Below are positions 13,480-30,698 of a stretch of 64,000 nt of DNA, one piece after another. Location of the stretch: NCBI RefSeq assembly GCF_003019035.1, contig NZ_CP027447.1. The stretch is one strand, 5' to 3'. Each line of letters begins with the position of its first letter. The first letter of the stretch is position 1. This DNA is from Escherichia coli. GTDB taxonomy: Bacteria > Pseudomonadota > Gammaproteobacteria > Enterobacterales > Enterobacteriaceae. A program made the translations under genes and the position numbers. The notes under the pieces are model-generated. The model was not told where the DNA came from and made no database searches. It saw only the letters and a list, made by a program, of their open reading frames with translations.

Positions 13480-16452
13480 TTACCAGTGCACTCCAATGGT
13501 GAGAAACGCATTGTTGCGCTCTCCGTTACGTTGATTAATCGCCTTAAAGGTATGTTGATACTCGACGCCGAGACTGACTTTGTGCGGCCAGGCGTCGTAG
13601 TGCGTCTCGCCGGTCCAGATATTCCAGCGGACCCCGACACCGCCAAGCTGCGCGCCCTGAGTGCCTTTATCACGATAGCCGTTGTCCTGAACGTGAGCGT
13701 AAGGCTCAATAGTCTGTCCGTTAGCTACCTTCTGATGCCAGCTGACGCGATAATCTGCCGTCCACGCCTGAATATCCTGGCGGATATATTGCGCTGCATC
13801 GAGGTACAGGTTTTGGGCAAACCAGCCTGAACCGTTCGGGTGCCATTCGTCGCTGTATTTGCCGCCATTAAAGAATGAGGCGCTGGCGCGCAGCATGGTA
13901 TCGGATGCGCCATTTTGCCCGTTCAGCGGCAACTGCTGTTCGACGGCGAGGAAAAAGATCTGATCGCGCAGCGGCTTCCAGCGCAGACCGGTGCCGGACA
14001 TCGGATTTTTCACCGGCATCATCACCCCGTTTTCTCCAGTATCGGCAAATACACGGCTGTAAACCGAGAGCAGGTCGCCTTCCAGCAGCATATTGCGTCC
14101 GATGCGATACTCGGCTTCCAGTTGCCCGTAGCTACGATAGCTTTTCCCTGGCGCTGCGCCGCCGACATTATTGTTAGCGGTACTCATTGCGCCGGAACGC
14201 AAGCCGATAGAAGAATCGAAACTGAACGTCCAGCGGCGACCGACCTCCTCATGCAGACGGCGGAAATTGAAGCGTTGCTGATTTTGCTCTGGGGTCAGTG
14301 GGGTTATCAGCGCCTGATTATCAATGTCATCAATCACCAGCCGGGCGTAGTGCTGCGTCGCAGGCATGTCATCCAGACGCTGGTTCACGTAGGCCAGTTG
14401 TCGGATAAGTGCCGGATCGTCCGGTAGCCCTTTATGCGCCTGTTCGAGCATTTCCCGCGACTGTGCGATATCACCGCTATCCCACAAGGCGTAACCGAGC
14501 GCTGCCTGGGTGTTGCTATTATTCGGTTCCAGTTCCAGCGCGGCGCGCAAATCACTCACCGCCGCCGGGACATTATGACGTTGGCGATAAATTGTCGCCC
14601 GCGCAACGTAAGCGTTGGCAGAAGGCGCAATATTGATTGAGCGCGTGAGATCGTTCAGTGCGAGTTCCGGCTGACCAGGAATGTAACGTTGCGCATGCAG
14701 CCACCAGTAGAGGGCATTGTTTCCCAGCCCACGTTGTTCTGCCTGCTGAAGCCAGCGATCGCGAGCCGCACCATTTCCTGCCGCCTGGGCGGTATTGGCA
14801 GCAGCAAGCAGATCCTCATTGCTCATGTCGTGAAGACTGATTTTCTGCCAGGCCGCCAGTGCGGTGGCGTAGTCCTCAACCTGATACGCCTGATAGGCTA
14901 CCGCACGATGTTGCCAGGCGTTCGGTTGTCGTTGTTCGGCCTGAAGCCATGCATACAACGCCACACCGGGTAGCGTGTCCCGATAACACTTTGCCAGACG
15001 GTTCCAGGCGGCGGCATCGTAGGAAGGCGACATATCGCCCAGCAAGCGAACTATTGCCGGGCAATTATCTGCAATACCCGGCAACTGACTTTGCCACTGA
15101 CGTTGCTCCGCCAGCGGTAAAGGTTTCGATAAAATCGCCACCTTCGCCGGCGTTGCCAGGTAAGGATGACTTTCCAGCAGAGACGCCAGTCGCGCCATTA
15201 ACGTCTGGCTGACACGCGCATCGCCCTGGAAAGGATAGCGTTGCAGCAATAAATCGGCAGCTTCGCGTGACTGCTCGTTCTGCATCAGTTGCCAGGTCAG
15301 TTGATCCAGGCGGGTAAGATTTGCCGGTTCTTGCTGATACAGCAATCGTGCCAGACGCAGAGCTTCAGCCTTGTTATGGGTCGCTACGCTAACGGTATAA
15401 CGCTCCTCAAGCATTTCATTGGCGGGGAGGGTGGCGAGCAGTTTTTGCGCTGCGTCGTACTGACCTTCTTTTAACAGCACCGGTAGCGTCGCGCCAACAA
15501 CATACTGGCGGTTATCGGCAAACTGTACCGTATAATTCGCCAACGCCTGAACGGGGTTGACGCTGTATTTAGATAACAGATAGAGCCAACTTTTCTCTTG
15601 TGCGTCCGTGGTAAACAGCGGCTTATTTTCAATGAGATAATGCTGGAGGCGCGCTTTTTCGCCACGATAAGCCAGCGCGGTCGCGTAAGTAATATATGAC
15701 TGAGGATCGGTGAAGATCCCCTGTGATTGCAGCGCCAGGATCCGATCATCCAGCTGCGCGGCAAGAAGCACGTCAAACCACTGACGGCGTTCTGCCGCGC
15801 TTAATGTGTTCTGCTGGCGTGCTTCATTATATAGCGTATCTGCCTGGGACCATTGTTTCAGGTAGATTGCGCGTTGCAGCAGATCGGTTCGCAACGTTTT
15901 TCCTTCCGGCGATGCAGCAAACGTCGCATCGTTTAGTTGCGCTCTGGCGACAGGTAATTGTGCCAGCCGCAGGGCATTCTGCCCGACTTCACTGCGACAA
16001 CGCAGGGTCGGCGCAGCGTCGCACGCTTTTTGCTGGGCAAGCAGTTCTTCAACAGTCGTAACGCTTTTCACTTCAACTGGAATAGCCGCCAGACTGCGCT
16101 CAAGTCGGGCATCTCCTGGGTGACGTTTCAGTTGATCCTCAAGCAACAGCCGCGCCCGGTCATCATGACCAAAATGGCGATAGGCTTCCGCAAGGTATAA
16201 AGTCAGCGGAATATTATCCGGCACCTGCTGGTGTATATATTCAAATTCGCGGATGGCGGTTGCTTCGTCGTTATTTTTCTGTGCCTTCAGCGCCTTGTCG
16301 AGACGGGGATAAATAACGAAATGGCGATAATCGCTCAGCCCCAGCTCTTCTGCGCTGGTGCCGATATTGTCTGCGAGTGCGCTGGTACTCAATAAAGACG
16401 TCAGCAGTAAACCAGACCATCCGATGACGCGATTAAGGTTATTCTCCTTCAT
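13480..16452 (-). CDS. nfrA: bacteriophage N4 adsorption protein A (outer-membrane TPR protein)
   Basis: 990-aa product from MKENNLNRVIGWSG... with signal peptide; start trimmed from the 997-aa track ORF. Confidence 0.9.
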   Translation of the reverse strand: MKENNLNRVIGWSGLLLTSLLSTSALADNIGTSAEELGLSDYRHFVIYPRLDKALKAQKNNDEATAIREFEYIHQQVPDNIPLTLYLAEAYRHFGHDDRARLLLEDQLKRHPGDARLERSLAAIPVEVKSVTTVEELLAQQKACDAAPTLRCRSEVGQNALRLAQLPVARAQLNDATFAASPEGKTLRTDLLQRAIYLKQWSQADTLYNEARQQNTLSAAERRQWFDVLLAAQLDDRILALQSQGIFTDPQSYITYATALAYRGEKARLQHYLIENKPLFTTDAQEKSWLYLLSKYSVNPVQALANYTVQFADNRQYVVGATLPVLLKEGQYDAAQKLLATLPANEMLEERYTVSVATHNKAEALRLARLLYQQEPANLTRLDQLTWQLMQNEQSREAADLLLQRYPFQGDARVSQTLMARLASLLESHPYLATPAKVAILSKPLPLAEQRQWQSQLPGIADNCPAIVRLLGDMSPSYDAAAWNRLAKCYRDTLPGVALYAWLQAEQRQPNAWQHRAVAYQAYQVEDYATALAAWQKISLHDMSNEDLLAAANTAQAAGNGAARDRWLQQAEQRGLGNNALYWWLHAQRYIPGQPELALNDLTRSINIAPSANAYVARATIYRQRHNVPAAVSDLRAALELEPNNSNTQAALGYALWDSGDIAQSREMLEQAHKGLPDDPALIRQLAYVNQRLDDMPATQHYARLVIDDIDNQALITPLTPEQNQQRFNFRRLHEEVGRRWTFSFDSSIGLRSGAMSTANNNVGGAAPGKSYRSYGQLEAEYRIGRNMLLEGDLLSVYSRVFADTGENGVMMPVKNPMSGTGLRWKPLRDQIFFLAVEQQLPLNGQNGASDTMLRASASFFNGGKYSDEWHPNGSGWFAQNLYLDAAQYIRQDIQAWTADYRVSWHQKVANGQTIEPYAHVQDNGYRDKGTQGAQLGGVGVRWNIWTGETHYDAWPHKVSLGVEYQHTFKAINQRNGERNNAFLTIGVHW

Positions 16453-18676
16453 TTTCGGACTCCAGTTGCGCAACCTTTTCTGTGTTTAAACCTGCTTTGA
16501 GTAATAGTGATTGCATCGAAACTTGTAATTCGCGTTGAATTGTCAGAACGCGATCCAACGTTTCCTGGCTGATAACGCCTTCGGTGACCAAAAACTTGCC
16601 GAGCGGCAGAGAACTGCGTTCATGGCGCAATAACAACACGTTAATTGCTGAACGATTAATATGACCGAGCGTGGTCAGTATTTCGGCGAACAGGAACTGA
16701 TGCGGCACATATTGCCGCCAGATTTCACCGGCCTGCTGTTCCGTGAGCCACTGATGCTGAACCGCATTGTACAACATTGCCCGCGGATCGTGACCGCGTC
16801 GGCGCGCATACCAGTGGCGTAACCCCGTGACAATTTGTCCCCGCAGAACAATGACGTAACGCACTTTGCGTCCGACTTTACGCGTCAGGGCCGCCAGCGA
16901 AACCGGGTCAATACCATCTTCACTGCCGACAATTAACTCATCATTTTCCAGACGCAGCGGCAGCACTGCATAATGCAGCGCCACGGAGGCCGGCATCTCG
17001 GCAATCAGTGATGAAGGGATCTGCCAGGCGTCGATCGACTCCCACGCCACGCCGTTTTGCTCTGCCAGCGCCTGTGCCAGCTGCTCGGCGCTAATCAGCC
17101 CCTGCATCAGCATTGAACCGCCAAGGCGTAGACCTTCGACGCGATTACGCAGTGCTGTATCGAGTTGTTCTTCAGTGATGACCTGATTTTCCAGCAGAAT
17201 TTGACCTAACGGGCGCAACGAGCGGGTATCGCCAGTCACGCTGGGGAAGTCATGCGTTGTTTTATCCCACGCCACGCGACGTGGATCGCCGTGTTGAAGT
17301 ACCTGTTTTAACGCGCGCCAGTTGGCCATGAAGTTAATCAGGTTGCCCCAGAAAAGACGCAGGACAGATAGTAGCCCCTGCGTCAGGCCGTAGTAGCCAG
17401 TGACGAAAATCACCCGCTGCACGATGCGGTTAACCATCAAGCCAAAGTTTAGCCACAGCAGGGTCATTAACCATGCGCTGCCGCTGAAAATAGAAAGGAA
17501 ATGCCAGGCATCGGGCCACAAACTTTCATACGCCAGTAACAGCAAAAGCTGGATCATCACCAGCATCGCGAGGAAGCTGACAAAGTTACTGATTGCCCCT
17601 TTGCGGTCGCGCCAGAGAAAGTAGTTCAGCGTCAGGCTGGAGGTCCATTTGTGGGTTTTAAAGCCCTGGAAAACAATGCCGATGATCCAGCGAGATTTTT
17701 GTCGAACCGCCGTCGAAAAGGTATCGGGGAAATATTCGCGCACGCAGATCATGTTTGACGTCCGCGCGTGCTGTAAAAATTTACGCTGCTCGCGTTCTTT
17801 GGCTTCGTCCACCACCGGAAAACGGACAAAAATTTCCGTCATACCTTTTTCTTTCAGGCGGAAACCAATGTCGTAATCTTCAGTAAGACTCTGCACGTCG
17901 AAAGCAATACCGTCACCGTCAGCTAACAGTGCGGTCACGGCGCGGCGGCTGAAACAAGTACCGACACCTGCGCTGGGCACCTGTCCGGCGAGGGCTTCAC
18001 GCACCGGAACATCTTTGCCATGCAGTTCTGAAAACTCATCAATGTAAGTCATGCTGGTGAAGTGCGTCCATTCGCGTTCGAATGGGTATACCGGGATCTG
18101 AATCAGATCTTTACGCTCGACCAGATAGTTGAACAGACGCAATTCCATCGGTGAAATTACGTCTTCGGCGTCATGCAGAATAAAACCAGCAAAAGCGAAA
18201 TTGGCGCTACGCTCAAACTGGGTGATGGCGTCCAGCACGTTGTTCAGGCAGTCGGCTTTGCTGGTGGGGCCAGGACGCGCGCAGACTACCTTATGCACGT
18301 TTGGGAAGCGAGCGCACACTTCGTCAACATCACGCTGAGTATCGGGGTCGTTGGGGTAGGTGCCAACAAAGATATGATAGTTTTCATAGTCGAGCGTGGT
18401 CGCCGCCAGCTCGGCCATATTGCCGATGACGCCCGTTTCATTCCACGCCGGAACCATAATCGCTAACGGTTTTTCATCTGGTTTATACAGTTCGCGGTAA
18501 CTCATTCGCGGGTAGCGGCGATAAACACTCAACTTGCGTTTAATGCGGCGTACCCAGTAGACGACATCAATAAAAAAATCGTCCAGCCCGCTGATGAACA
18601 TGATGACCGCTAACGTTATCGCGATTACTTTTAAGCCATATAGCCAGGTTGCAAAAACATCAAGAAGCCAGTCCAC
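16439..18676 (-). CDS. nfrB: bacteriophage N4 adsorption protein B (inner-membrane glycosyltransferase)
   Basis: 745-aa ORF, membrane N-terminus plus GT2-like domain; overlaps the nfrA start (operon). Confidence 0.92.
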   Translation of the reverse strand: MDWLLDVFATWLYGLKVIAITLAVIMFISGLDDFFIDVVYWVRRIKRKLSVYRRYPRMSYRELYKPDEKPLAIMVPAWNETGVIGNMAELAATTLDYENYHIFVGTYPNDPDTQRDVDEVCARFPNVHKVVCARPGPTSKADCLNNVLDAITQFERSANFAFAGFILHDAEDVISPMELRLFNYLVERKDLIQIPVYPFEREWTHFTSMTYIDEFSELHGKDVPVREALAGQVPSAGVGTCFSRRAVTALLADGDGIAFDVQSLTEDYDIGFRLKEKGMTEIFVRFPVVDEAKEREQRKFLQHARTSNMICVREYFPDTFSTAVRQKSRWIIGIVFQGFKTHKWTSSLTLNYFLWRDRKGAISNFVSFLAMLVMIQLLLLLAYESLWPDAWHFLSIFSGSAWLMTLLWLNFGLMVNRIVQRVIFVTGYYGLTQGLLSVLRLFWGNLINFMANWRALKQVLQHGDPRRVAWDKTTHDFPSVTGDTRSLRPLGQILLENQVITEEQLDTALRNRVEGLRLGGSMLMQGLISAEQLAQALAEQNGVAWESIDAWQIPSSLIAEMPASVALHYAVLPLRLENDELIVGSEDGIDPVSLAALTRKVGRKVRYVIVLRGQIVTGLRHWYARRRGHDPRAMLYNAVQHQWLTEQQAGEIWRQYVPHQFLFAEILTTLGHINRSAINVLLLRHERSSLPLGKFLVTEGVISQETLDRVLTIQRELQVSMQSLLLKAGLNTEKVAQLESENEGE

Positions 18677-18855
18677 ACAAAAACCTTACATTAACGCTGG
18701 TTATGTTTAGGGTGGCGTATATTAAAGTTTTTTATGAATTGTGACAGCTTTTTATCATTAATAGGTAGGATTATTGCGGCACGTTATTTTTACACTGGTT
18801 ATAAAAGTTGCCGATTGCGTAGAATGTAGACAAAAGCGTGGTGTCAAGGAGGGGA

Positions 18856-20160
18856 GGGTAACGCAGGGAAAGATTACGAAAGCCCGCTCCCCGCAAGGAC
18901 TGACGCCAGATAGTTTCTGTCCATGGCTGCTTTTCGCATCTTACGTCTTAACCCTGCCTTGAATACCTTATCATTCGTCAAAATATTAATAGCGATGTGC
19001 CGTATCCCTGAAAATAATTCTGCTGCATTTCCTCTTCTTATTTTGCAGTCGTCTTCATTCATTACCACGTCCAGACGCCAGTGCAGCTTATTCTCCACGT
19101 GCCAGTGGTTTCGGATTGCTGTGGCGAACTTCTCTGCGGTTAAATCAGCAGAACTGATATAATATCTGACCGTCATTTCGGGCTCTTTCTTTTGTTCTGC
19201 TATTATTGACCGAAAGGAGACTGCCACGCATAATTTCTTCAGACCTTTCCATTCAAACGTGAAATCAATAAGTTCATCAGGGACATCGCAAACAATGTGA
19301 AGACGGATTTCTTCTCTGCCGTGACTCTTTTCACTCATTGCGTAACTGTCATGCTCTGGATTATTTAATTCTTTCAGCGGAAATTTTTCCTCGAAGGCTT
19401 TATTTAGCCGCCCCTGGTTTCCTTTTACAGCGAATAAATAATCACCTCCCTGTTTTTGTATCTTCTCTGCAATATCTTTCTGGCAACCCATCGCATCAGT
19501 TGTGATGATTTTTCCTTTAATATCCAGCATGTTAAGAAGTTCTTGGATAGCTGTAATCTCATTGGATTTCTCATCCGTCCTGATCTGTCCGATGACCAGA
19601 CTATGCATTGTTGAGAACGCACTAATGACATGAATCGCTCCCTTGCGGCGACTCTTGTCATAAGAGTGCCGGAGCGTTTTTCCATCAATTGCAATGACGC
19701 CTTTATCATCTGAAGAATGGCAGTCACGCATCCAGTTAATAAAGCACTCGTGAAATTTTGCAGGACTGATACAGGATACAACTCTGGCAATGGTATCGTG
19801 AACAGGAATACCATTTTCAAAATCACCATATTGCTTCAAAAAATCGAGATGTGTTTCCCCAAAATCCTCTATATCTTCCCAGCCTTCTGCACCAGAAATA
19901 ACGGCACAAATAGTCAACAGTAGAATATCCGACAATTTATGTTCCACTTTCCAGGCTTGTCTGTACTCGGGAATAACAGAAATATGTTCTATCAATTTTT
20001 TAAGTACCATTTTGTTCTCCTTAATTATGTAAGGAGTATTTGATCATGTATAAGCAATAAAAAACAGCTTCAGGTAATGAGGAATATCTCAATTTTTAAA
20101 CATAAAATGCGAATTATTTAGTACAAAAAAGCAGCGTTACGTGATCTTTCCCTGTGTAAT
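18856..20160 (-). mobile_element. H-repeat / ISAs1-family insertion sequence (about 1.3 kb)
   Basis: Contains the 378-aa H-repeat-associated transposase; imperfect terminal inverted repeats centred on CAGGGAAAGAT (18861-18878 versus reverse complement of 20139-20156, 15/17 identical); boundaries approximate to about 5 bp. Confidence 0.75.
18874..20010 (-). CDS. ISAs1-family (H-repeat-associated, YhhI-like) transposase
   Basis: 378-aa [53 protein letters not shown]...; near-identical to the recalled E. coli H-rpt protein family. Confidence 0.9.
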
Positions 20161-20834
20161 CCCCCAGCTAAATCATGAACTTTTTGAGCCATTTTACTTA
20201 ATTCAGGGCAGGCTCCTAAACCTAATGGATCTGTGAAGCAACACGGATTCAGCACATAACCATAAGTGTTTAGTCCACCCAATACACCCAGGGGGTCACT
20301 CACCAGATACATCCCGGTCTCCGGCTCGTAGTACCGGAACCGGTTATAGCACAGCCCTGACTCCGCATCCCGCCACTGCCCCGCATACAGCAGACCGGGG
20401 TCCGCTTCTGCGTCTCGCTCCCCGCGCGGGTCCGGGTAGTCCCTGTCTGCGCTGACGCTGAGTGCCAGCCCCCACAGGCTGGTCTGCTCCGCACGCCACA
20501 CCACGTTACCCTGACTGTTAAAGAGCATCACCGGGCGGCCTGTCAGGTCGCTTACCGCATGGCTGGTCCGCGTCACCCACTGCGGGGCCACGGACGGGTG
20601 CGGCTGCCGTACCCGGCTGAACTGCTGGCTTATCAGCTCAAAGCCGTTAAACACCAGGTACCGCACACTGTACAGTTTATCATCGCGGTATTCCCGGATT
20701 TCCGCAATAGTGTCGCCGTCCCACAGATATGTGATGCGGAGGGCTTTTTGTTTGCAGCGTTTCTCTGTCCGTCTGCCACTGGCGTCGTGGCAGTATTCCC
20801 ACTGCTCACCCCGGGCGCTGCGGTAGCCGATCAC
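20118..20834 (-). pseudogene. orphan rhs C-terminal fragment (last about 206 aa of Rhs core plus a truncated alternative tip)
   Basis: Homologous to residues about 1260-1470 of the upstream Rhs through the PxxxxDPxGL core end (DPLGL); no upstream ORF or canonical start; only about 19 native residues follow DPLGL before the reading frame runs into the IS terminal repeat. Confidence 0.7.
20217..20834. repeat. direct repeat copy 1 (rhs core 3' end, orphan copy)
   Basis: About 620 bp, high-identity copy of 21694-22311 visible in both nucleotide and protein alignment. Confidence 0.75.
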
Positions 20835-20863
20835 GGCTGTCGTGGCGGAACTTTATCTCTTTT

Positions 20864-21253
20864 TTATTTAATCCAGTAAGCTAATCTCTCACCAATCTTC
20901 AAATTTTCTCTTTTGTAATAAAATACAGTATCAAAGTTAATGGATATTTTTTTCGCAATAACTTTGAATTTCAATTCAAATTCCGAATAAAACTCTAATA
21001 CTAACATTTCACGAGCATTGTCAGTGCAACTTGATAGCTTAATAAACTCCTCATTAAGATCGCATGACCAGTCCATAACACCGCTAATATAGCATGGCGT
21101 GTCTATTATTATTTCCAGTGTGTGATAGTAAGAAAGGTCATCACTCCCGGAAATAATCAAGCGATTATGTTCATAAAGAAAAACTGAAAAATCCAACCAA
21201 CTTTCTTTCCAATTATGGTGCTTTATATCATTAATTATGTTTTGCTCACTCAT
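20864..21253 (-). CDS. candidate cognate immunity protein for the Rhs C-terminal toxin
   Basis: 129-aa AT-rich ORF; its ATG overlaps the rhs TGA stop in a 4-bp ATGA overlap; positional analogy to rhsI genes; no family recognised from sequence. Confidence 0.6.
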   Translation of the reverse strand: MSEQNIINDIKHHNWKESWLDFSVFLYEHNRLIISGSDDLSYYHTLEIIIDTPCYISGVMDWSCDLNEEFIKLSSCTDNAREMLVLEFYSEFELKFKVIAKKISINFDTVFYYKRENLKIGERLAYWIK

Positions 21254-24200
21254 GGAATAGTTCCTGTAGGCAATGGTATATGAGTATCATTTGCAGCTCC
21301 TGGATTATAATTCGGACTTTTAGTTTTCAAATCAGATGTATGATGCCAACTGCCATCAGGAGAACCATACTCCCAACCATAGCCTTGATTAGTCGCAGGA
21401 TTTGTTCCACTTTGGCTTCTACCAATCCTATATATGGGGCCATTGGCAGAATTACTCCCTGCTGGAGCAGTAGGGTTTACATCATGAGCCCTTACTTCAT
21501 ATTTATAATTTCCGACGGTGAATTTTTCTTTAAATTTTATAGGGTAGTTATGCCCAGACAAGCCTTGCCGATGTAAAGCATAATTTAACACATCCTGCGG
21601 TGAGGTATTTTTAATTGCTTGATGCGCTTGTGCTGCTGTCATACCTTGAGAACGATTGTATTTATACCAATCATACATCACAGGACATATAGCTAATCCC
21701 AAAGGATCAACATACCCCAGCGGATTAGGCACATACCGGTAAGTCTGCTCACCCCCCAGCAACCCCAGTGGATCACTCACCAGGTACATCCCGGTTTCCG
21801 GCTCGTAATACCGGAACCGGTTATAGCACAGCCCCGATTCCGCATCCTGCCACTGCCCCGCATACAGCAGGCCGGGGTCGGCTTCCGGGTCCAGCTCCCC
21901 GCGCGGGTCCGGGTAGCCGGTGTCTGCGGGCAGGCTGAGTGCCAGCCCCCACAGGCTGGTCTGCCCCGGTCGCCAGACGGTTTTACCTTCACTGTTAAAG
22001 AGCACCAGCGGACGGCCCGTCAGGTCGCTCACCGCATGATTCGTTCGCGTCACCCACTGCGGGGCCACGGACGGATGCGGCTGCCGTACCCGGCTGAACT
22101 GCTGACTCAGCAGCTCAAAGCCGTTAAACACCAGGTGCCGTACGCTGTACAGTTTATCATCCCGGTATTCCCGCATTTCCGCAATACTGTCGCCGTCCCA
22201 CAGATACGTAAAACGGATTTTCTTCCGGTCGCAGCGTTTTTCCGTCCGCCTGCCGCTGGCGTCGTGGCGGTATTCCCACTGCTCACCCTGTGCGCTGCAA
22301 TACCCGGTCAGCTGGTCCCGGCTGTCCCACCGGAACCGCTCTGTTTCCGGGCGGTAGCCGTCACGGTGTCTGGTGCGGCTGACCATCCGGCCTGCGGCGT
22401 CATAGCTGTAGTCTGTGTTTCCGGTCTGTTTCAGCCGGTGGCCGCGCTGATACATGTCAGTATCCACGCTTATCCGGTGCCTGCCCGCCGACTGCGCCTT
22501 CAGGTAGCCACAACTGTCATAGCCATAGGACTCATCGCCTTCGCCATAGCCCAGCCCGGTGCCTGAGGCTGTCACCGCCGTGACCTGGCCGTTCCGGTCC
22601 AGCCGGTACTCCCGCCGTGTTTCCCGTCCGTAGTCTTCCCGGCTGGTGACAGCCGACATATTGCCCGCGCTGTCGTAACGGTACTCCCGCACCAGTGAGG
22701 GGAGCAGTCCGCCCCATGTGGCTTCCGCCGGGAAAAGTCCGGCGCGCTGGCTGGTAAGCTGACCGGCTGCATTCCAGCCCTGCTCACAGGCAAAACCCCG
22801 GTTACTGTGCCGGAGCACTTCACGTCCTGCCTCATCACGGCTGAACGTCAGCGTCTCATCCCCCGGCAGGATAACCTCCGTCAGTTCTCCGGCGGCGTTG
22901 TAGCGGTAGGTGGTTTTCAGCAGGGATTCACCGGGGTGTCTGTCGCGTTCATCTTCCGGTGGCAGGATACAGCGGATGACGGTGTGTTCATCGGGGTGGT
23001 GGTATTCAATGGCCCGTCGGCCCTGAGTGGTGACATTCACCCGCCCGCGTTCGTCATAGCCGGTGCGCTGTGATGTACCGTCCGGGCTGAAGATACCCGT
23101 CAGCCTGCCGGATTTGTCATAGGCATACTGCGTTTTGCCTTCCGGCGAGATGACTTCTGCCAGGCGGCCTGCGGCGTCCCGGCTGTAGAGGATAGTTTCC
23201 TCCAGGCCGTTAACCCTGGCGGTACAAAGGCCATCGGCGTCATAGCGGTAACGCCAGACCACGCCGCCCCAGTCACGCTCTTCCGTCACCCGTCCACAGT
23301 TGTCCAGAATATAACGGTATGACTCGCCCTGCGGATTGATGACTTCTGTCAGTTGCAGCGTGTCTTTATCGTAGCGGTACTGCCAGCGGTGGCCTTCACC
23401 GTCCGTTCGCGCCACCGGCAAATCGAACGGGCCGTATTCCATCGTCCAGACAACGCCGTTGCCGTCCGTCCAGGCCAGCAGGTTGCCGTGGCGGTCATAG
23501 CGAAATCCTTCCGCGCCGGTGCCAGTGCGTTCAAGGCCGCTCAGTTTATGGTGCTGCTGCCACCGTAACCGCACTGACTGACCGCCGGGGCCGCGCATCT
23601 TCACCGGCAGGTCGTGACCGCTGTATTCGGTGTGGTGTTCACGGCCCATCACGTCGGTGAGTGTTTCCGGCCGGTTGTGGTGGTCGTACTCTATGCCCAG
23701 ACGCCGTTCATCCTGGCGGAATATCCCCGACAGCAGCCCCTGCGGCGTGTACGCCAGCCGGGTCTCTTCGCCCTGTGGCGACACCAGACTTACCGGCAGG
23801 CCGCGTTCATCACACTGCTGCGTCCACATCTGCCCGGCAGGGTCGGTGATGTTGCTGAGCAGGCCGCGCTCATCATAGCAGTACTGCCACTCCGCACCGT
23901 CTGCCGCCGTGTAACGGCTTAACTGACCGTGTGCGGCGTTGTATTCAAACTTCTCCACCCGCCCGGCAGGGGAGTGGCGGGCCAGCAGGTGATGGAATTC
24001 ATCCCATTCATACATGGTGGTGCTGCCGTCCGGCGCTGCTTCCCGCAGAATATTGCCGTCAGGATCATAGTAATAACGGTGAATGCCCTTGCCGTCCGTC
24101 ACGGTGGTGCAGCCGTCACCATAGTCCAGCGTGGCGTTGTAATAGCCCTCCGCCCCGGTGACGGTCACGCACCGGCCCTGTGCATCGTAGGTGAAACGGC

Positions 24201-26103
24201 TCCACGTCTGGTCGTTATCGGACCAGCGGATGATCCGGTCCGCAGCGTCGTACTCATAAAACAGGTGGTAGTCCAGCCGCGCATCCGCTTCTGTCAGCCG
24301 CCCCCGCGCATCCTGTTCGTAGGTCGCCAGCATCTGTATGCCGTTATCCGTACGGTGAATGGCTTTCAGGTAGCCGCTGGCATGGTACGTCAGTTTAAGC
24401 CGGATCCCGTCGGTGTGACTGACACCCATGATGCGGTACTGGCTGTCGCGCTCAAACGTGATGCGGTTGCTGGCGGTGTCGCTCATCCCGCCCAGCATGT
24501 ACATCCGGTCTGCGGGGCTGTGTGCCAGACGGTCATCGCAGGTATCGTCAGTCACCGGGTGGCGCAGGCGCATTCCCGGAAAGGCGTCATAAAAGAAGCG
24601 GCTGCTCAGTGCATCACGGTCGAACAGCTCCAGGTAATCGTCGCGGCGGCGCAGAATGTACTGGGCGTGATACGGGTTAACCGCCGTATCACTGTCACCG
24701 TCGAAGGCAAATCTCAGCGTGGTTCCCTGGCTGATGATATCCACCCGGTTTCCCTGTTCACGCACCCAGGCGTATTCGCTCCAGGAGTCGCTCCAGCCCA
24801 CGCCCGTCAGACCATGCAGCGGCAGTACAGAACTGTGGAAACGGGTGAAGGAGAGGGGGAGTGTCTGGCCCAGCGTAAAGTCGGTACGTTCGTCGCAGTA
24901 TGCGCCGGTTACCGGATCGACAGGATCTGTTACCCATCTGATGACTTTATTGGCAATACTTTTTAACGACTTACCTGTTTTCCCCAGCAACGCGCCGAGC
25001 TTTGCCCCCAGCAGCTTCCCGCTTTTCCCCAGCAGGTTTCCCAGTTTGCCGAGTTTCGCCAGATTCCCCAGTTTTCCCAGCAGTCCCGCGGGCGGCAGAA
25101 GATAGCTGGCTATCGTTATTCCCCCCAGGATCATTCTCTGCCACGGCGGGAACTCCGGCTGGATATCCAGATAGGTCACCTGTTCACCGCCAATAAAGAC
25201 GTCCGGCGAACCTTCCACGATTGCCGCGCTGCACTCCAGTTTGTCCCCTTTGCGTGCGGCAGTCTGATTGTTGATAAAGACGTTGCTGCTGCCCTGGGCT
25301 ATCCTCGGTGGTTTGTTCTCCTTGTCGCAGAGCGCCGTGTCCTCACCGGCTTCCGGGAAATCCACGTCTTTTTTGATTTCGCCACGCCCGCCCACCATGG
25401 TGGCAAACTCCATTAATACCGGACCGGCGGGAAACAGAAGCGATGCGCCGGCGCTGACGCGATCCATAATACCGGCATTGCTGTCCGTCAGGGTGATAAC
25501 AGCGTTCCCCCAGGCCTTCGCCAGTGGTACTGCTTTTTCCGCTGCCGATTCAAGCAGGTCAGTGGCAATATCACCCCATGAGGGTTCCCCCTGTGGTGGA
25601 GAGGGTATTGCTTCAGTCAGGGGAGGAGGGGGAAGGGTGACGGCGGCCCTGGCAGCGGGCTTTCCGTTAATGTTTACATTTTTAGAACCAGTATTGATGG
25701 CCCCGTCCGTGTCACAAAAACTGTTTATCCATGATTCAAGCTGGTTCTGTTTCTCCTCCACATAATCACTCGCCTTATAGCTGGCATACATCAGCGCAGG
25801 CACCAGAACCAGCGCATAAGGGCCGGTGGCACAGGCGGCCATAATCAGGCAACCTTCTGCGATGGTCACTATCGCCCCCAGCACGGCCCCTGCCAGCGCC
25901 CCCAAAAAACTCTTGTGCTGAATTTCATCGCCCAGCCTGGCTGCGGGGGGGCCAGACTTTTTTGATGCCAACATCTGTGCAATGGCTTTGTCGTTGGCTG
26001 CCCGTTTCATCTGGCTGGCGACCATCGCCTGCTGTGACAGCATTCGCATTGCCAGCGTACCGCCTGCGGTCGCTCCCTGTGGCCCGCCTGGTCCTTCACT
26101 CAT
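21250..26103 (-). CDS. rhs: prePAAR/PAAR-domain Rhs-family polymorphic toxin (T6SS effector) with variable C-terminal toxin tip
   Basis: 1617-aa ORF: N-terminal AARLGDEIQH (prePAAR-like AARxxDxxxH), hydrophobic helices, PAAR-like segment (ARKGDKLECSAAIVEGSPDVFIGG), long YD/Rhs repeat region, core terminating at DPLGL, then a 147-aa low-GC tip. Confidence 0.9.
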   Translation of the reverse strand: MSEGPGGPQGATAGGTLAMRMLSQQAMVASQMKRAANDKAIAQMLASKKSGPPAARLGDEIQHKSFLGALAGAVLGAIVTIAEGCLIMAACATGPYALVLVPALMYASYKASDYVEEKQNQLESWINSFCDTDGAINTGSKNVNINGKPAARAAVTLPPPPLTEAIPSPPQGEPSWGDIATDLLESAAEKAVPLAKAWGNAVITLTDSNAGIMDRVSAGASLLFPAGPVLMEFATMVGGRGEIKKDVDFPEAGEDTALCDKENKPPRIAQGSSNVFINNQTAARKGDKLECSAAIVEGSPDVFIGGEQVTYLDIQPEFPPWQRMILGGITIASYLLPPAGLLGKLGNLAKLGKLGNLLGKSGKLLGAKLGALLGKTGKSLKSIANKVIRWVTDPVDPVTGAYCDERTDFTLGQTLPLSFTRFHSSVLPLHGLTGVGWSDSWSEYAWVREQGNRVDIISQGTTLRFAFDGDSDTAVNPYHAQYILRRRDDYLELFDRDALSSRFFYDAFPGMRLRHPVTDDTCDDRLAHSPADRMYMLGGMSDTASNRITFERDSQYRIMGVSHTDGIRLKLTYHASGYLKAIHRTDNGIQMLATYEQDARGRLTEADARLDYHLFYEYDAADRIIRWSDNDQTWSRFTYDAQGRCVTVTGAEGYYNATLDYGDGCTTVTDGKGIHRYYYDPDGNILREAAPDGSTTMYEWDEFHHLLARHSPAGRVEKFEYNAAHGQLSRYTAADGAEWQYCYDERGLLSNITDPAGQMWTQQCDERGLPVSLVSPQGEETRLAYTPQGLLSGIFRQDERRLGIEYDHHNRPETLTDVMGREHHTEYSGHDLPVKMRGPGGQSVRLRWQQHHKLSGLERTGTGAEGFRYDRHGNLLAWTDGNGVVWTMEYGPFDLPVARTDGEGHRWQYRYDKDTLQLTEVINPQGESYRYILDNCGRVTEERDWGGVVWRYRYDADGLCTARVNGLEETILYSRDAAGRLAEVISPEGKTQYAYDKSGRLTGIFSPDGTSQRTGYDERGRVNVTTQGRRAIEYHHPDEHTVIRCILPPEDERDRHPGESLLKTTYRYNAAGELTEVILPGDETLTFSRDEAGREVLRHSNRGFACEQGWNAAGQLTSQRAGLFPAEATWGGLLPSLVREYRYDSAGNMSAVTSREDYGRETRREYRLDRNGQVTAVTASGTGLGYGEGDESYGYDSCGYLKAQSAGRHRISVDTDMYQRGHRLKQTGNTDYSYDAAGRMVSRTRHRDGYRPETERFRWDSRDQLTGYCSAQGEQWEYRHDASGRRTEKRCDRKKIRFTYLWDGDSIAEMREYRDDKLYSVRHLVFNGFELLSQQFSRVRQPHPSVAPQWVTRTNHAVSDLTGRPLVLFNSEGKTVWRPGQTSLWGLALSLPADTGYPDPRGELDPEADPGLLYAGQWQDAESGLCYNRFRYYEPETGMYLVSDPLGLLGGEQTYRYVPNPLGYVDPLGLAICPVMYDWYKYNRSQGMTAAQAHQAIKNTSPQDVLNYALHRQGLSGHNYPIKFKEKFTVGNYKYEVRAHDVNPTAPAGSNSANGPIYRIGRSQSGTNPATNQGYGWEYGSPDGSWHHTSDLKTKSPNYNPGAANDTHIPLPTGTIP
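21253..21693 (-). other. Rhs C-terminal toxin domain (147 aa after DPLGL); candidate WHH/HNH-type nuclease
   Basis: Abrupt drop in GC content after the DPLGL junction; motif GSWHHTSD...NYNPGAAN...THIP near the C-terminus resembles the His-His...Asn...His arrangement of HNH/EndoVII-fold toxin domains. Confidence 0.45.
21694..22311. repeat. direct repeat copy 2 (rhs core 3' end, main gene)
   Basis: Homologous to 20217-20834; substrate for homologous recombination that would swap toxin tips. Confidence 0.75.
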
Positions 26104-26122
26104 GTGTTATCCCTCGTTTATG

Positions 26123-26584
26123 TCAGCGCGGCTGGTCCTTTTGGATGTCATTCTCCGGTGGCAACGGGGTGAAGCTCTTTATCACCTCCAGCAGCATCGT
26201 CTTTTGACTGTTCTTCAGGGATAAGGAGGTGCTGAAAGTGAAGGTCAGCAGCGTATCTCCACGCCGCTGGAATACGGCTATCTGGCTAATCCGCCCCTGA
26301 TTCCCTTCATCTTCCGGACCGTTCCAGGAATAATCCAGCAGCCAGGCCGGGGCCTCTGCCAGAGTGATTTCCCGGCAGGCATGTTCGGTGTACCCATCAA
26401 GTTTGCCCTGGTACAGCGCCAGCGTTTCCTGGTACAGCTCTGGTGTCAGGGTTCCCTGTGGAACGGCTTCGCGGGTAATGACCAGGTTGATGCCACTGTT
26501 ATCTGTGGACACCAGGACCTGCATTGACTGATCCTGCCATTGAGACGGCAGTTGAATGTGGCCTTCATTAAAAGTGAACTGCAT
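26123..26584 (-). CDS. DUF1795 / Eag-family effector-associated chaperone
   Basis: 153-aa ORF between vgrG and the prePAAR-Rhs gene, tightly spaced; size and position typical of EagR-type chaperones. Confidence 0.75.
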   Translation of the reverse strand: MQFTFNEGHIQLPSQWQDQSMQVLVSTDNSGINLVITREAVPQGTLTPELYQETLALYQGKLDGYTEHACREITLAEAPAWLLDYSWNGPEDEGNQGRISQIAVFQRRGDTLLTFTFSTSLSLKNSQKTMLLEVIKSFTPLPPENDIQKDQPR

Positions 26585-26611
26585 AAAATACTCCCTGTTA
26601 ATCTGAGTGAA

Positions 26612-28513
26612 TCAGTTGATGAAAACAGAACCGCCCACGATGGTGATGCCATCCTTCGACAGCCTGATTACCGTCGATTCCCCGACCTGTAGCTGTATGC
26701 CATCCGGCGTCAGCGCAATTTTGCTTTCCTCCACGGCCAGCAAAATTTCCTTAATCGCCGTATAAGCCTGTATACCGTCGCCTTCGCCACCATTGTTTAC
26801 AGCGTCAACATGCACCGAACCGGCAATCGTGCCTCTGTCCTGAAAGACATCCTCAGATAAAGACCCTTTCAGTACTCCGGTGATCTTGTGGCCTTTTTCC
26901 ACCGTAAGAAGGCGGTTACCTTCCTGGATCGTGACCGTCTGGTCATTTTTTACGGTTTCGCGGTGATCGTGTTTTACGGTGGTGGTACGGTCGTTGAGCA
27001 CTTCGGTATCCATGTTCTTCTGCGCGTGGATGTAGACCTGTTCTCTCCCTGTCGCATCATCAAACTTCAGCTCATTAAATCCGCTGCCCATGTACGTTTT
27101 GGAGCGGATGGTCATCTGCGTCTTTGTTCCCGGCAGGCTGCCGGGGGTGCGGTTTTCCTGGTGGTAGGTGCGCCCCATAATGATCGGCTGGTCCGGATCG
27201 CCGTTGAGGAAGTCTACAATCACTTCCTGACCCACACGCGGTATCGCCAGGTGGCCAAAACCGGTGCCTGCCCACGCCTGTGCCACACGGATCCAGCACG
27301 AACTGTCTTGGTCTGCCGGGTTATAACGGTCCCAGTTGAACTTCACCCGCACGCGACCATGTTCGTCGCAGAAGATTTCCTCGCCTGCCGGTCCTGTCAC
27401 GACAGCGCTCTGCGGGCCGTCGACCAGCGGTTTCAGCAACGGCTGTGGTCGCCATGTTCTGTCTGCCGGGATCACCGCAAAATGGTTCTCCAGCGCCGTC
27501 CCCGCTCCCTGCCGTCCTGGCACCGCCTGTGGCTGTTCGCCGTGCAGTTCACTTGCCACCACCTGCCATTCCCGGTTCAGGTTCGCCTGCGGATGCCCCG
27601 TCAGCACAATTCGTCGTCCCGGCCATATCTCCGGCGAGCGACTCATTCCCCGCGCGGTTTCTGCATTGTTTCGCCAGCCGTCCATCTGCCAGCGGGCAAA
27701 GTTCTGCCCGTGGGCACCCTTGAAACGTCCGGGGTAGTCATACACTTCATACTGCGTGCGCTGGTAGTCCTGGTGCTGGCCTTCCTGTTCAAAACGTCCG
27801 GCCCAGCCGGGGCGTTTAAAGGTGTAGTCTTTGGTCACCACGGAAGAAGGGCGGATTTGTGCGCTGTAGCGGAACTGGCTGATGCAGAGGGTGCTCACCT
27901 CGGTACGGGTGTTCGGGTTCCATGGGATTTCAAAAGATTCGGGCAGATGGCGGACTGTGTCGCACAGCACCAGGCTCTGGTCGGTACTTTTGTAAGCATG
28001 CTCCTCATAAAAGAAGATGCCTTCCTCCGCCGCCATCCGGCACAGGAAATCGTAATCAGTCTCACCGTACTGGACACAAAACTCACGGGAAGGATGCGGC
28101 TCGCTGAACAGCGGACTCCATTCGGTCACCCCGTTTTCCTGCAACATCGTGCCGAGGATGCTTTTGATGTCCTCGTTCTGGAAGATACGGAAGTTCTGGC
28201 GCAGACCGGCACGCCACAGCGGCGGGTGCACCTTCATGCTGTACAGCATCTGGTTTTTGTCGTTCTCCCCCAGTTCAAACCAGGTCACCACGCCTTTCAC
28301 CCGGCGCTGTACTTCATCGCCCTGCCATATCGTCAGGTAGGCCATTTTGTCCAGCACCTGCGCAAATTCAAGGGAGAGAAACTGCTGGCTGACCAGGGAG
28401 AGATCGAGGGAAAAGAGCGAAGAGAGTGACTGGTTCAGATGAAAGGAAACCACCGCAAAAGCATCCGGCGGCAGGCCGTCCACTTCCAGTGTGAAACGTA
28501 ATCCGGTTGACAT
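26612..28513 (-). CDS. vgrG: type VI secretion spike protein VgrG
   Basis: 633-aa ORF starting MSTGLRFTLEVDGLPPDAF... with gp27/gp5-like regions and a C-terminal beta-helix-like segment; canonical VgrG N-terminus. Confidence 0.9.
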   Translation of the reverse strand: MSTGLRFTLEVDGLPPDAFAVVSFHLNQSLSSLFSLDLSLVSQQFLSLEFAQVLDKMAYLTIWQGDEVQRRVKGVVTWFELGENDKNQMLYSMKVHPPLWRAGLRQNFRIFQNEDIKSILGTMLQENGVTEWSPLFSEPHPSREFCVQYGETDYDFLCRMAAEEGIFFYEEHAYKSTDQSLVLCDTVRHLPESFEIPWNPNTRTEVSTLCISQFRYSAQIRPSSVVTKDYTFKRPGWAGRFEQEGQHQDYQRTQYEVYDYPGRFKGAHGQNFARWQMDGWRNNAETARGMSRSPEIWPGRRIVLTGHPQANLNREWQVVASELHGEQPQAVPGRQGAGTALENHFAVIPADRTWRPQPLLKPLVDGPQSAVVTGPAGEEIFCDEHGRVRVKFNWDRYNPADQDSSCWIRVAQAWAGTGFGHLAIPRVGQEVIVDFLNGDPDQPIIMGRTYHQENRTPGSLPGTKTQMTIRSKTYMGSGFNELKFDDATGREQVYIHAQKNMDTEVLNDRTTTVKHDHRETVKNDQTVTIQEGNRLLTVEKGHKITGVLKGSLSEDVFQDRGTIAGSVHVDAVNNGGEGDGIQAYTAIKEILLAVEESKIALTPDGIQLQVGESTVIRLSKDGITIVGGSVFIN

Positions 28514-29249
28514 AGCAACCTCCAGTAAAATGAATAATGATCCGTACCGTACAACTGCGGATAATGTGATAAGCGGGACGACTTCAGACGTTATTAGGGA
28601 AGGAACAGAAAATGCTATGGTTATGTGAGAATTTTGTTTAAATATTACTTTACAGAAACGGGTGTCTGTTCAGTCAAAAAAATAATCACAAGCTCAACCT
28701 CTTGTTTCTTGGCGTTATTCAGGACAGGTACGCATATCACAACGAGTAACAAAAACGCAAAGTTAAACCAATATTCATAATATATTTTTATTCACAGCAA
28801 TAAATAATCCAATTAACATTATTAAAATGAATGATTGCATAAGAAATATATGCTACCGCTCCACCCTGATAACATGATCTGCACATTGCACATCTTAACG
28901 TTGTTAAATACTGGCTCAATAGTGGATATTTTAAATTAGGAATTTATCAAATTCACTTGATAAATAGATTGAGTGAATAATATAACAATTAATGATGATT
29001 AATCGCGATTAAATTATTCATTGCTTTATATGATAGATGGCTTGTTTATAACGATGAAAATTTAGAAAGGGCATTGTGATCTACAATTGGAAGAAACACA
29101 GATTTAACTAAGTTTCATATACAAACATCTCGTGAAACTTTGAAAAATAAAAGCCTTCGATATTTCATATGTTTAATAAGTTTTTCTCTAATTTGTTGAT
29201 CAACAATACCAGGAGGTGATGCACCACGCCCTGAATTTGAACTTAATAA

Positions 29250-30698
29250 TCACTCTCTCTCCGGCAGCATAATCACAAACCTTGACCCCCGCGCATCTGA
29301 CGTTACTGCAACCGTGCCTTTATGCGCGACAACAATTGATTTCACTATCGCCAGCCCAATGCCGCTACCTTCGCCTTTTCGCTGGCGGGAAGGATCAACG
29401 CGGTAGAAACGGTCAAACAATCGCGGTAAGTGTTCGGGCGCAATGGGCGTACCGGGGTTTTCGACGGAAACTTGCACCTGGTGATCGACCGTCTGGCAGC
29501 GCACAACAATTGCCTCTCCGGGTGGCGTATAACGCAGGGCGTTCGAAAGCAGGTTGCTTAACGCCCGACGCAACATCAGCGGATCGCCCGCAACCTGACA
29601 CTCGTCACCAACAAACCGCAACTCCACGCCGCGATCTTCCGCTAACGCCTCGAAAAAATCGAACACTTTGCCGACTTCATCCGCCAGGTTGAGCATTTTC
29701 TTTTCGGGGATTAACTGGTTGTTATCGGCCTGAGCGAGAAACAGCATATCGCTGACCATTTTCGCCATTCGAGTCAGCTCTTCGAGATTAGAGTAGAGCA
29801 CATCTTCCAGCTCCTTCTGACTGCGCGACTGGCTGAGGGCGATTTCCGTTTGCGTTATGAGATTCGTAATCGGCGTGCGAATTTCGTGAGCGATATCCGC
29901 TGAGAAATTGGACTGGCGGGTAAAGACATCCTCGATACGCTCGATCATATGGTTGAACGACAGCACCAGTTGTTCGAGTTCAATGGGCACGGTCTGTGGA
30001 TCGAGGCGAACGTCGAGATCTTTCGAGGTAATGTTCTGGATTTGACGGCTGACGCTGCGAATTGGCGCGTGGCCTTTATGTACCGCCAGCAGCACGATAA
30101 AGACGATCAGGATGCTGATGATCGATGCGGTCATAATAAGTTTATTCATCAAATCATTTATGTAATGAAGATGAAAATCGATCGAAAGCGCGATGTAGAG
30201 CGTATAAATCGGTTTGCCGTCCACCAACGGGCCAACCGGCAAGTTAATCATCCGCCAGTTGCTGTGTTCCATATGCCCGTGACCGTGGCCTGGCATCATA
30301 ATCGTCGGGCCGGAAAGGAGATACACCTCGCCACCCTGAGCGTCTTTATCGGGTATGGCGTCACGCGTAAACTCGCGGATATCCGGCGCACCGGGGGAGT
30401 GATACACCGTTTTGCCGTGGCTATCTGCCAGGGAAATCAACACGTTGGAATAACCACTGACGATATCTTCCAGCGTCATTAAGCGTCGGGCTTGCGTCTC
30501 GTCAGGATGATTAAGTACCCGTTCAAGGGTGGCGCTAATTTCTTTTAAATCATTAATATCCTGCTCGGCAAAATGCACTTTCACTGAGTGGATCATGATC
30601 CATGCAAAGGCGAAAAACGCCGCGATGGTGGCCAGGCTGATAAAAAAGGTCAGACGGGTTGCCAGCGAAAACGGGCGCTGAAATGGCTTACTGACCAT
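29250..30698 (-). CDS. cusS: copper/silver sensor histidine kinase CusS
   Basis: [19 protein letters not shown]... with HisKA/HATPase regions; overlaps the cusR stop. Confidence 0.93.

Follow-up and report, generated by a model that had tools for sequence, protein, structure and literature searches.

The 64,000-nucleotide stretch of Escherichia coli contig NZ_CP027447.1 analysed here (the window) carries a truncated rhs fragment that is most likely (probability about 0.85) what remains of a "dissociated tip," now decayed, in the vgrG-rhs island at position 4 (nfrB-cusS) of E. coli. Part of an rhs 3' core, together with its toxin tip and presumably its immunity gene, would once have formed the working end of an rhs gene. 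Arrival of the present cassette of 3' core, Ntox30 tip, and immunity gene, by C-terminal displacement through recombination in shared core sequence, would have stranded this older module, now silent, beyond the main gene. The ISEc1 resident at the nfrB end would then have been the site of a rearrangement, most likely a deletion next to the IS, that removed everything past tip codon 20, any immunity gene included. With no target-site duplication around the IS and no intact parent tip found, this order, displacement first and IS-mediated deletion afterwards, is an inference. The relic is real and ordinary, and is already annotated and described.

Organization of the position-4 island

The island lies between nfrB and cusS, the rhs "position 4," and comparison with the empty site of K-12 bounds it at 18819-29271; the features described here are all on the minus strand. 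It begins with vgrG (26612..28513), a 633-aa open reading frame (ORF) for a type VI secretion spike protein, annotated at the identical RefSeq locus as "type VI secretion system tip protein VgrG." Between vgrG and rhs is a small accessory gene (26123..26584; 153-aa ORF; RefSeq "DcrB-related protein") whose position fits that of a putative Eag/DUF1795-type chaperone gene. The main rhs gene (21250..26103) codes for a full-length toxin of 1,617 aa, named "RHS repeat-associated core domain-containing protein" in RefSeq, with a literal PAAR motif near its N terminus, the Rhs core, a DPLGL motif, and a C-terminal toxin tip. Compared with the rhs that other E. coli carry at this locus, the core is 94 to 99% identical. 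The attached tip (21250..21693; 40% G+C) contains an Ntox30 toxin domain (Pfam PF15532, E = 1.6e-11), and an adjacent 129-aa ORF (20864..21253; RefSeq "hypothetical protein"; 31% G+C), which overlaps the rhs stop codon by 4 nt, is by its position the putative immunity gene of the main toxin.

The orphan (dissociated) 3'-core fragment (20217..20858) begins 5 nt past the stop codon of this immunity-like gene, in the same orientation as the main rhs. The orphan tip module proposed in the first-pass annotation agrees with the ORF map, which places the 3' core and tip downstream of a full rhs gene and an immunity-like gene. It closely resembles the displaced tips of Jackson et al. 2009 (BMC Genomics 10:584, PMC2935791), who assigned nfrB-cusS to position 4 (clade IV), used it as an example of tips displaced downstream (C-terminal displacement), and noted strains with tip-less core fragments. 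The locus is the same; the orphan lies downstream of an intact rhs in the same orientation, with a partial core whose hyperconserved DPxGL end is repeated from the upstream gene, followed by a nonhomologous low-G+C tip with no translational start; and other strains likewise end the array in tip-less core fragments. There are two departures: the cores in that study are "always identical," whereas the orphan core here shares 83.2% of nucleotides and 81.6% of amino acids with the attached core, short of near-identity, and its tip is cut to 20 codons by ISEc1.

The direct repeat and decay of the orphan fragment

A repeat search of the window yielded a single family, with copies spaced 1477 nt apart: 20217-20834 in the orphan and 21694..22311 at the 3' end of the main core up to DPLGL. 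They align without gaps over 618 nt, with 514 of 618 nucleotides (83.2%) and 168 of 206 amino acids (81.6%) identical, far above chance. Identity is about 85 to 93% per 60-nt block across the first ~540 nt and falls to about 60% in the final ~78 nt between the two DPLG motifs, both of which lie inside the repeat; resemblance ends directly after DPLGL, where the repeat terminates. The longest exact run common to both copies is 31 nt, and the blockwise comparison contains no stretch of near-100% identity in the 618 nt. Homology reaches about 24 nt farther 5' (KFRHDSRD; 20835-20858), although an 8-nt deletion shifts these 8 codons out of frame. The direct repeat claimed in the first-pass annotation is thus borne out by both the repeat search and the gapless comparison, but "high identity" overstates a moderate 83.2% with exact runs of no more than 31 nt, and the extent given, 20217-20834, holds for the in-frame part while homology continues upstream with the frame lost. 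The peptides quoted there each lack one E (GEQWEY...), a trivial slip.

After DPLGL the orphan changes to a tip (GACPELSKMAQKVHDLAGGL) that differs from that of the main Rhs and has a G+C content of 42%, compared with 60% for the core. The tip remnant (20155..20216) comprises 20 codons and 2 nt and is cut by the left end of ISEc1 at 20154. No complete C-terminal toxin domain follows the orphan DPxGL, only these 20 codons, and no immunity gene follows the tip, since ISEc1, 45 bp, and the nfrB upstream region come next and leave no room. As ISEc1 cuts the tip and nfrB is directly beyond it, neither the toxin nor any immunity gene is left. The 238-aa ORF at 20118-20834 takes its final 12 codons and stop from ISEc1, and its GTG at 20834 is a merely mechanical start, sited at a frameshift inside homologous core sequence, with no Shine-Dalgarno sequence upstream and no ATG start. 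Promoter-like sites around the orphan are at chance level (5 found, 5.9 +/- 2.5 expected), and no terminator-like site was found between the ORF and the upstream minus-strand operon.

Because it lacks a start, a ribosome-binding site, and a promoter of its own, is frameshifted at the 5' end, and runs into an IS at the 3' end, the fragment is predicted to be a pseudogene encoding neither toxin nor immunity protein. PGAP labels it a pseudogene, [quoted passage not shown] and nearly all RefSeq records annotate it so, two labeling it a CDS. Most of what had been proposed about its decay is retained: the absence of promoter and start codon, the switch to a different tip after DPLGL, and the loss of toxin and any cognate immunity; the truncation is also real, although at 20 codons and 2 nt rather than about 19 residues. 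An independent full protein with its own promoter and start, looked for as the opposite outcome, was not found. The suggested roles in tip switching or as an immunity island are inoperable here, since the tip is down to 20 codons and an immunity gene is absent. In this it is unlike the orphan rhs-CT/rhsI modules described by Poole et al. 2011 (PMC3150448) and the modules of Koskiniemi et al. 2014 (PMC3967940), who reported recombination between main and orphan copies; in Salmonella, homology upstream of DPxGL is the substrate (PMC3150448; PMC3967940). Like those modules, the orphan lies downstream of rhs and rhsI and keeps rhs coding sequence before DPxGL, but it has no toxin domain and no immunity gene and its homology to the main gene is much more diverged. 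Judged by its sequence, recombination could not arm it, nor could it confer immunity.

ISEc1, sister lineages, and the search for a parent

The element that ends the array is ISEc1 (H-rpt, ISAs1 family; 18864..20154; 1,291 bp). Its size of about 1.29 kb, terminal inverted repeats (CAGGGAAAGATCACG and CGTAATCTTTCCCTG), single transposase ORF, and end-to-end match are those of ISEc1/H-rpt, and the yhhI and ydcC copies of K-12 and thousands of other genomes match exactly 18864-20154 at about 97% identity. The transposase gene is intact (18874-20010; 378 aa; RefSeq "ISAs1 family transposase"), and the boundary was set by comparison with copies in other genomic contexts of E. coli genomes. H-rpt elements were reportedly found inside K-12 Rhs elements by Hill and co-workers in the 1990s; examples in K-12 are yhhI adjoining rhsB and ybfD/ybfL in RhsC. 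Here also an rhs array has a 1,291-bp ISAs1-family element at its distal end, but the element directly truncates the orphan tip.

Beyond ISEc1, the final 45 bp of the island (18819..18863) precede K-12-type nfrB upstream sequence, as placed by alignment to the K-12 empty site. There is no target-site duplication around ISEc1, the flanks (...GGGGGATTACA and CGTTACCCTCC...) not being direct repeats, and the junctions therefore fit a deletion or rearrangement better than a simple insertion. Other E. coli lineages (R1, 1070/13, and O157:H7) also have this island, likewise with ISEc1 toward nfrB, and their arrays carry other orphan modules. The left IS junction differs in each sister lineage, falling in mid-core rhs fragments or noncoding DNA, and about 64 bp that adjoin the right side of the IS in other lineages (L003-L005) are missing here; both junctions are unique to this lineage. 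Relative to the sister lineages both flanks of ISEc1 appear to have suffered deletions, and because the sister left junctions all differ and the ~64 bp are missing, the comparison suggests that deletions beside the IS have recurred at this end of the island.

The structure is nearly unchanged in 82 of 5,426 complete E. coli genomes, with at least 99.9% identity over 5.2 kb in the four carriers checked, and the orphan tip DNA is confined to those 82. The database search with the tip start proposed in the first-pass annotation was run, and the intact toxin from which GACPELSKMAQKVHDLAGGL came was found in none of the collections searched. A word-indexed protein search with a 41-aa peptide of pre-tip and tip gave no candidate; degenerate back-translations of KMAQKVHDLAG and GACPELSKMA each had 0 matches in 100,044 species-representative genomes; megablast and sensitive blastn of the 5,426 E. 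coli genomes added nothing to the same 82 truncated copies; and an exact 24-mer in metagenomes matched 4 contigs, in all 4 of which ISEc1 follows the tip. The best match to the full ORF in protein searches is the same ORF, all others being at most 86% identical, and tblastn on plasmid records returned only generic Rhs pre-tip matches. The tips of P0007 (beginning NKGASLSKMMNSSSDLMG) and P0003 (beginning AFCPRMQKTLQKLTDKA) agree with that of the orphan at 7 to 9 of about 20 residues; they were rejected as parents, the stretch being too short and the DNA identity only about 43%. In contigs L006 and L009 the DNA on the right of the IS was considered as the missing remainder of the tip and rejected; it comes from the pptA/ydcC flank of an ISEc1 elsewhere in the chromosome, joined across IS copies either by misassembly or by inversion.

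Origin of the orphan core

The orphan core is only 83 to 88% identical to any other E. coli rhs and is equidistant from all of them, whereas the main-gene copy of the repeat is 94 to 98% identical to the same segment of other E. coli locus-4 rhs genes. The dN/dS between orphan and main copy is 0.21, and an open frame was kept in only 2% of neutral simulations, both of which argue that the core diverged while part of a functional gene; it would so have come from a diverged but once-functional rhs. Orphans of three other strains at this locus are 95 to 96% identical to their own main gene. With only 83% identity and no near-identical stretch of the kind that a recent single crossover with a circular intermediate would leave, displacement by the simple route is not demonstrated here; the module could be far older, or could have come by a different route.

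Such a route could be the introduction of a fragment from a more distant donor, for instance along with or next to ISEc1, or through illegitimate insertion beyond the immunity gene, so that the orphan was never attached to this rhs. The distance of its core from every E. coli rhs would be explained, as would its contrast with the usual displaced tips at the locus, the restriction of tip and pre-tip to the 82 carriers, and the two lineage-specific IS junctions. We nevertheless consider this unlikely: ISEc1 at the nfrB end is common to many lineages with unrelated orphan content and is thus an old resident and not a recent carrier, the orphan is oriented like the main gene and follows the immunity-like stop codon by 5 nt, as displaced tips do, and no donor was found. 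If the 3' end of the main gene itself had been duplicated locally in tandem and the copies had then diverged where they stood, this would account for two direct repeats of like orientation with a spacing of only 1477 nt, but such an origin is very improbable and was rejected, given the 17% difference, a dN/dS and open frame at odds with neutral decay, tips unrelated past DPLGL, and a main copy nearly identical to those of other strains beside an orphan equidistant from all.

Least credible is that the 238-aa ORF (20834-20118) is an independently expressed gene for an Rhs-core fragment with an IS-encoded tail. The frame is open, some gene callers predict it (P0001, 57 member sequences), two RefSeq records label it a CDS, and read-through from the upstream operon is possible where no terminator-like site intervenes; the missing start signals, chance-level promoter-like sites, GTG at a frameshift, 12 C-terminal residues of translated IS end, and PGAP pseudogene call in nearly all records led to its rejection.

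Recombination between the orphan and main copies would be rare on a substrate of 83% identity with exact runs of at most 31 nt, and could only delete the Ntox30 toxin and the immunity-like gene, leaving a toxin-less Rhs. None of the 82 complete genomes carrying the structure is a recombinant. Metagenome contig L009 (ERZ836939; 2.5x coverage) is a main/orphan mosaic that could be an assembly chimera, and we think it quite unlikely that it is real and that the repeat still recombines in natural E. coli populations to give a "disarmed" Rhs. If it were, the Ntox30 toxin/immunity pair would be deleted and Rhs would end in an IS-encoded tail, making the IS-truncated orphan an off-switch for a type VI secretion effector, and tip displacement would work across ~17% core divergence, against the near-identity rule of 2009.

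Beyond correct annotation the finding has little importance, and only the 17% divergence of the orphan core and the lack of an intact tip relative in the collections searched are mildly unusual. Its practical value is that the 238-aa ORF, a composite of rhs core and translated IS end, should be flagged as a pseudogene, so that strains with this island are credited at the locus with a single live effector-immunity pair (Ntox30) rather than two. At the same locus used to propose the tip-displacement model, it provides a clean and well-bounded case of an rhs toxin array that would have grown by tip displacement and eroded by IS-mediated deletion.

Setting and gene order of the island

The host is Escherichia coli, and the segment 18500-22400 occurs at 100% identity in 82 complete genomes, MS6198 and ECONIH1 among them. 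K-12 aligns as an empty site, with homology ending at 18818 and restarting at 29272, and the island therefore spans 18819-29271, with nfrB on one side and cusS on the other. Jackson et al. 2009 (PMC2935791) number the nfrB-cusS interval as rhs "position 4" and give it as the only clade IV locus that E. coli has. In our open reading frame map all genes relevant here are on the minus strand, in the order VgrG (633 aa, 26612-28513), an accessory gene (153 aa, 26123-26584), the main Rhs gene (1617 aa, 21250-26103), a putative immunity gene (a 129-aa AT-rich ORF overlapping the main Rhs stop codon, 20864-21253), the mechanical ORF of the orphan (238 aa, 20118-20834), the ISEc1 transposase gene (378 aa, 18874-20010), and nfrB (16439-18676), followed by nfrA. 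For the identical locus, RefSeq lists VgrG, DcrB-related protein, RHS core protein, and hypothetical protein, then marks the orphan as a pseudogene (an RHS repeat domain-containing protein lacking both termini), and ends with an ISAs1 transposase. Pfam Ntox30 (PF15532) is matched by the last 176 residues of the main Rhs at E = 1.6e-11. This live tip lies within 21250-21780 (minus strand); the 129-aa ORF after it is 31% G+C and unannotated, and the two form a candidate toxin-immunity pair.

The direct repeat and the origin of the orphan core

A repeat search of the window finds a single direct-repeat family, with a 1477-nt spacing. The orphan copy (20217-20834) and the main copy (21694-22311) align without gaps at 514 of 618 bases (83.2%) and 168 of 206 residues; the repeat of about 620 bp reported in the first-pass annotation is thus present, with its "high-identity" softened to 83%. 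Identity per 60-nt block is 85-93% for about 540 nt, drops to about 60% between the two DPLG motifs, and is gone directly past DPLGL, where the orphan does diverge into a different tip; the longest exact run common to both copies is 31 nt. Homology extends a further 8 codons upstream (KFRHDSRD in the orphan, FRWDSRD in the main gene), where the orphan codons are out of frame because of an 8-nt deletion; the "GTG start" at 20834 is thus a chance product of the frameshift. No Shine-Dalgarno sequence was found before this GTG, and promoter-like sites in 18600-21400 are at chance level (5 found versus 5.9 +/- 2.5 expected), bearing out the view that the orphan lacks a promoter and start of its own.

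At position 4, newly acquired tips displace attached tips downstream to give silent "dissociated" tips (Figure 5 of Jackson et al. 2009, PMC2935791), and some strains have a downstream core fragment without a tip (same source); orphan rhs-CT/rhsI modules were defined by Poole et al. 2011. The orphan core described here departs from the rule of the 2009 displacement model that cores are always identical. Against the position-4 rhs of other strains, the main 3' core (21754-22353) has an identity of 94-98%, whereas across 5344 non-carrier genomes no rhs exceeds 85-88% identity to the orphan core, and the best non-self matches of the orphan protein are ≤86% identical. In strains R1, 1070/13, and O157:H7 TT12A, the orphan and the main gene of the same strain share 95-96% identity. 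The dN/dS between orphan and main copies is 0.21, and the frame stays open in only 2% of simulations of 104 random substitutions. The divergence therefore built up while the gene was functional and is not the result of decay at its present site. Either the module is an incumbent tip of long standing or it derives from a diverged donor, and core divergence is the one point at which a simple displacement story is not demonstrated for it.

ISEc1 and truncation of the tip

Past DPLGL the orphan reads GACPELSKMAQKVHDLAGGL and then CAGGGAAAGATCACG..., the latter being the terminal inverted repeat of an insertion sequence. The ends of this element were fixed with 18753-20265 as a query against 5426 complete E. 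coli genomes. Copies lying in other, unrelated surroundings, yhhI and ydcC of K-12 among them, align to precisely query positions 112-1402, corresponding to 20154-18864; they are 1291 bp, about 97% identical, and annotated as ISEc1 of the ISAs1 family. ISEc1 is the classical H-rpt of Rhs elements. Its end at 20154 leaves a tip remnant of 20155-20216 (20 codons plus 2 nt) and makes the last 12 codons and stop of the 20118-20834 ORF translated IS end; the tip is indeed truncated early, at this length and not the about 19 residues proposed earlier. No target-site duplication flanks ISEc1 in the window. The 11 nt outside the canonical ends (18853-18863 and 20155-20165) are mutually complementary at 7 of 11 positions, lengthening the inverted repeat (binomial p of about 0.008, hand calculation), and the left flank GGATGTATA resembles that in strain 1070/13, GGGATTACA; both could reflect target-site preference or chance.

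R1, 1070/13, and O157:H7 TT12A share this island, again with ISEc1 on the nfrB side, but their arrays differ. R1 has a main rhs, an immunity gene, an orphan with a restriction-endonuclease-fold toxin, an immunity gene, and then fragments; O157:H7 has a main rhs, an immunity gene, an orphan with a zincin-like toxin, and an immunity gene; and 1070/13 has a main rhs with a zincin-like toxin, an immunity gene, and then a fragment. The left ISEc1 junction lies in mid-core rhs in R1 and 1070/13, in non-coding DNA in O157, and in the orphan tip in the window, and about 64 bp directly to the right of ISEc1 are kept in the three other lineages and missing here (18819-18870 versus 10293-10362 of L003, and the equivalent islands L004 and L005). 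These differing junctions and the missing 64 bp suggest that deletions next to the IS have recurred at the island's nfrB end, the mark of a long-resident IS that has repeatedly eroded its neighbors. An ISEc1-adjacent deletion would have removed the remainder of the orphan tip and its immunity gene.

Parent toxin, recombination, and status of the module

The search for an intact parent toxin proposed in the first-pass annotation finds none in genomes, metagenomes, or proteins. By megablast and sensitive blastn (E <= 10), orphan tip DNA occurs only in the 82 E. coli carriers, always truncated; degenerate patterns for two 10-11-residue tip stretches match nothing among 100,044 species-representative genomes; an exact 24-mer of the tip is present in four metagenome contigs, with ISEc1 after the tip in all; and protein searches with the orphan return the same ORF alone. 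Two E. coli tip families with 7-9 of about 20 residues in common with the orphan tip were rejected as not significant. A widespread E. coli rhs fragment (protein matches P0006, P0008, and P0012, with 346 member sequences for P0008) has the tip NKGASLSKMMNSSSDLMG, truncated about 18 residues past DPLGL and running into unrelated LRRQPQNFWRLYRGKDI and a stop; P0007 has the same tip at full length, and the fragment gives a second case of a tip cut short early.

Main and orphan copies recombine through homologous regions in Salmonella (Koskiniemi et al. 2014). There are no recombinants among the 82 complete carrier genomes, and four carriers checked over 5.2 kb have 1-2 substitutions relative to the window, one also with a 1-nt gap. 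Metagenome contig L009 (ERZ836939 NODE_17935, 2.5x coverage) is a main/orphan mosaic at positions 1-525, aligned to 20155-20834 and 21632-22311, with informative sites running as 24 main, 20 orphan, 7 main, a short alternation, and orphan to the end, followed beyond the repeat by the orphan tip and ISEc1. The mosaic could be a natural recombinant or gene conversion, or a chimera formed by graph assembly where the copies share k-mers. In L009 (1906-2496) and a second contig, L006 (1-10115), the right end of ISEc1 (18864) joins a pptA-yddH-nhoA flank and not nfrB; the pptA/ydcC flank belongs to the ydcC site at a different place in the chromosome, which in carrier strains holds a further ISEc1 copy. 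The join could come from misassembly between identical IS copies or from an inversion mediated by the IS. A third contig, L008 (PPYE01651591.1), matches this locus over 20076-23417 with an identity of about 100%, except that 22258-22529 (272 nt, main core) and 20390-20580 (191 nt, orphan) are absent; the gaps are either genuine deletions that shift the frame or artifacts of assembly.

The orphan is a real feature, and its first interpretation is supported, including the loss of the toxin and any immunity gene. Since 20 tip codons remain and there is no immunity gene, neither the tip switching nor the immunity-island role that had been raised is possible, and the orphan has no plausible current function. 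It is a known kind of relic at a known locus with an existing pseudogene annotation, and as such is already described.
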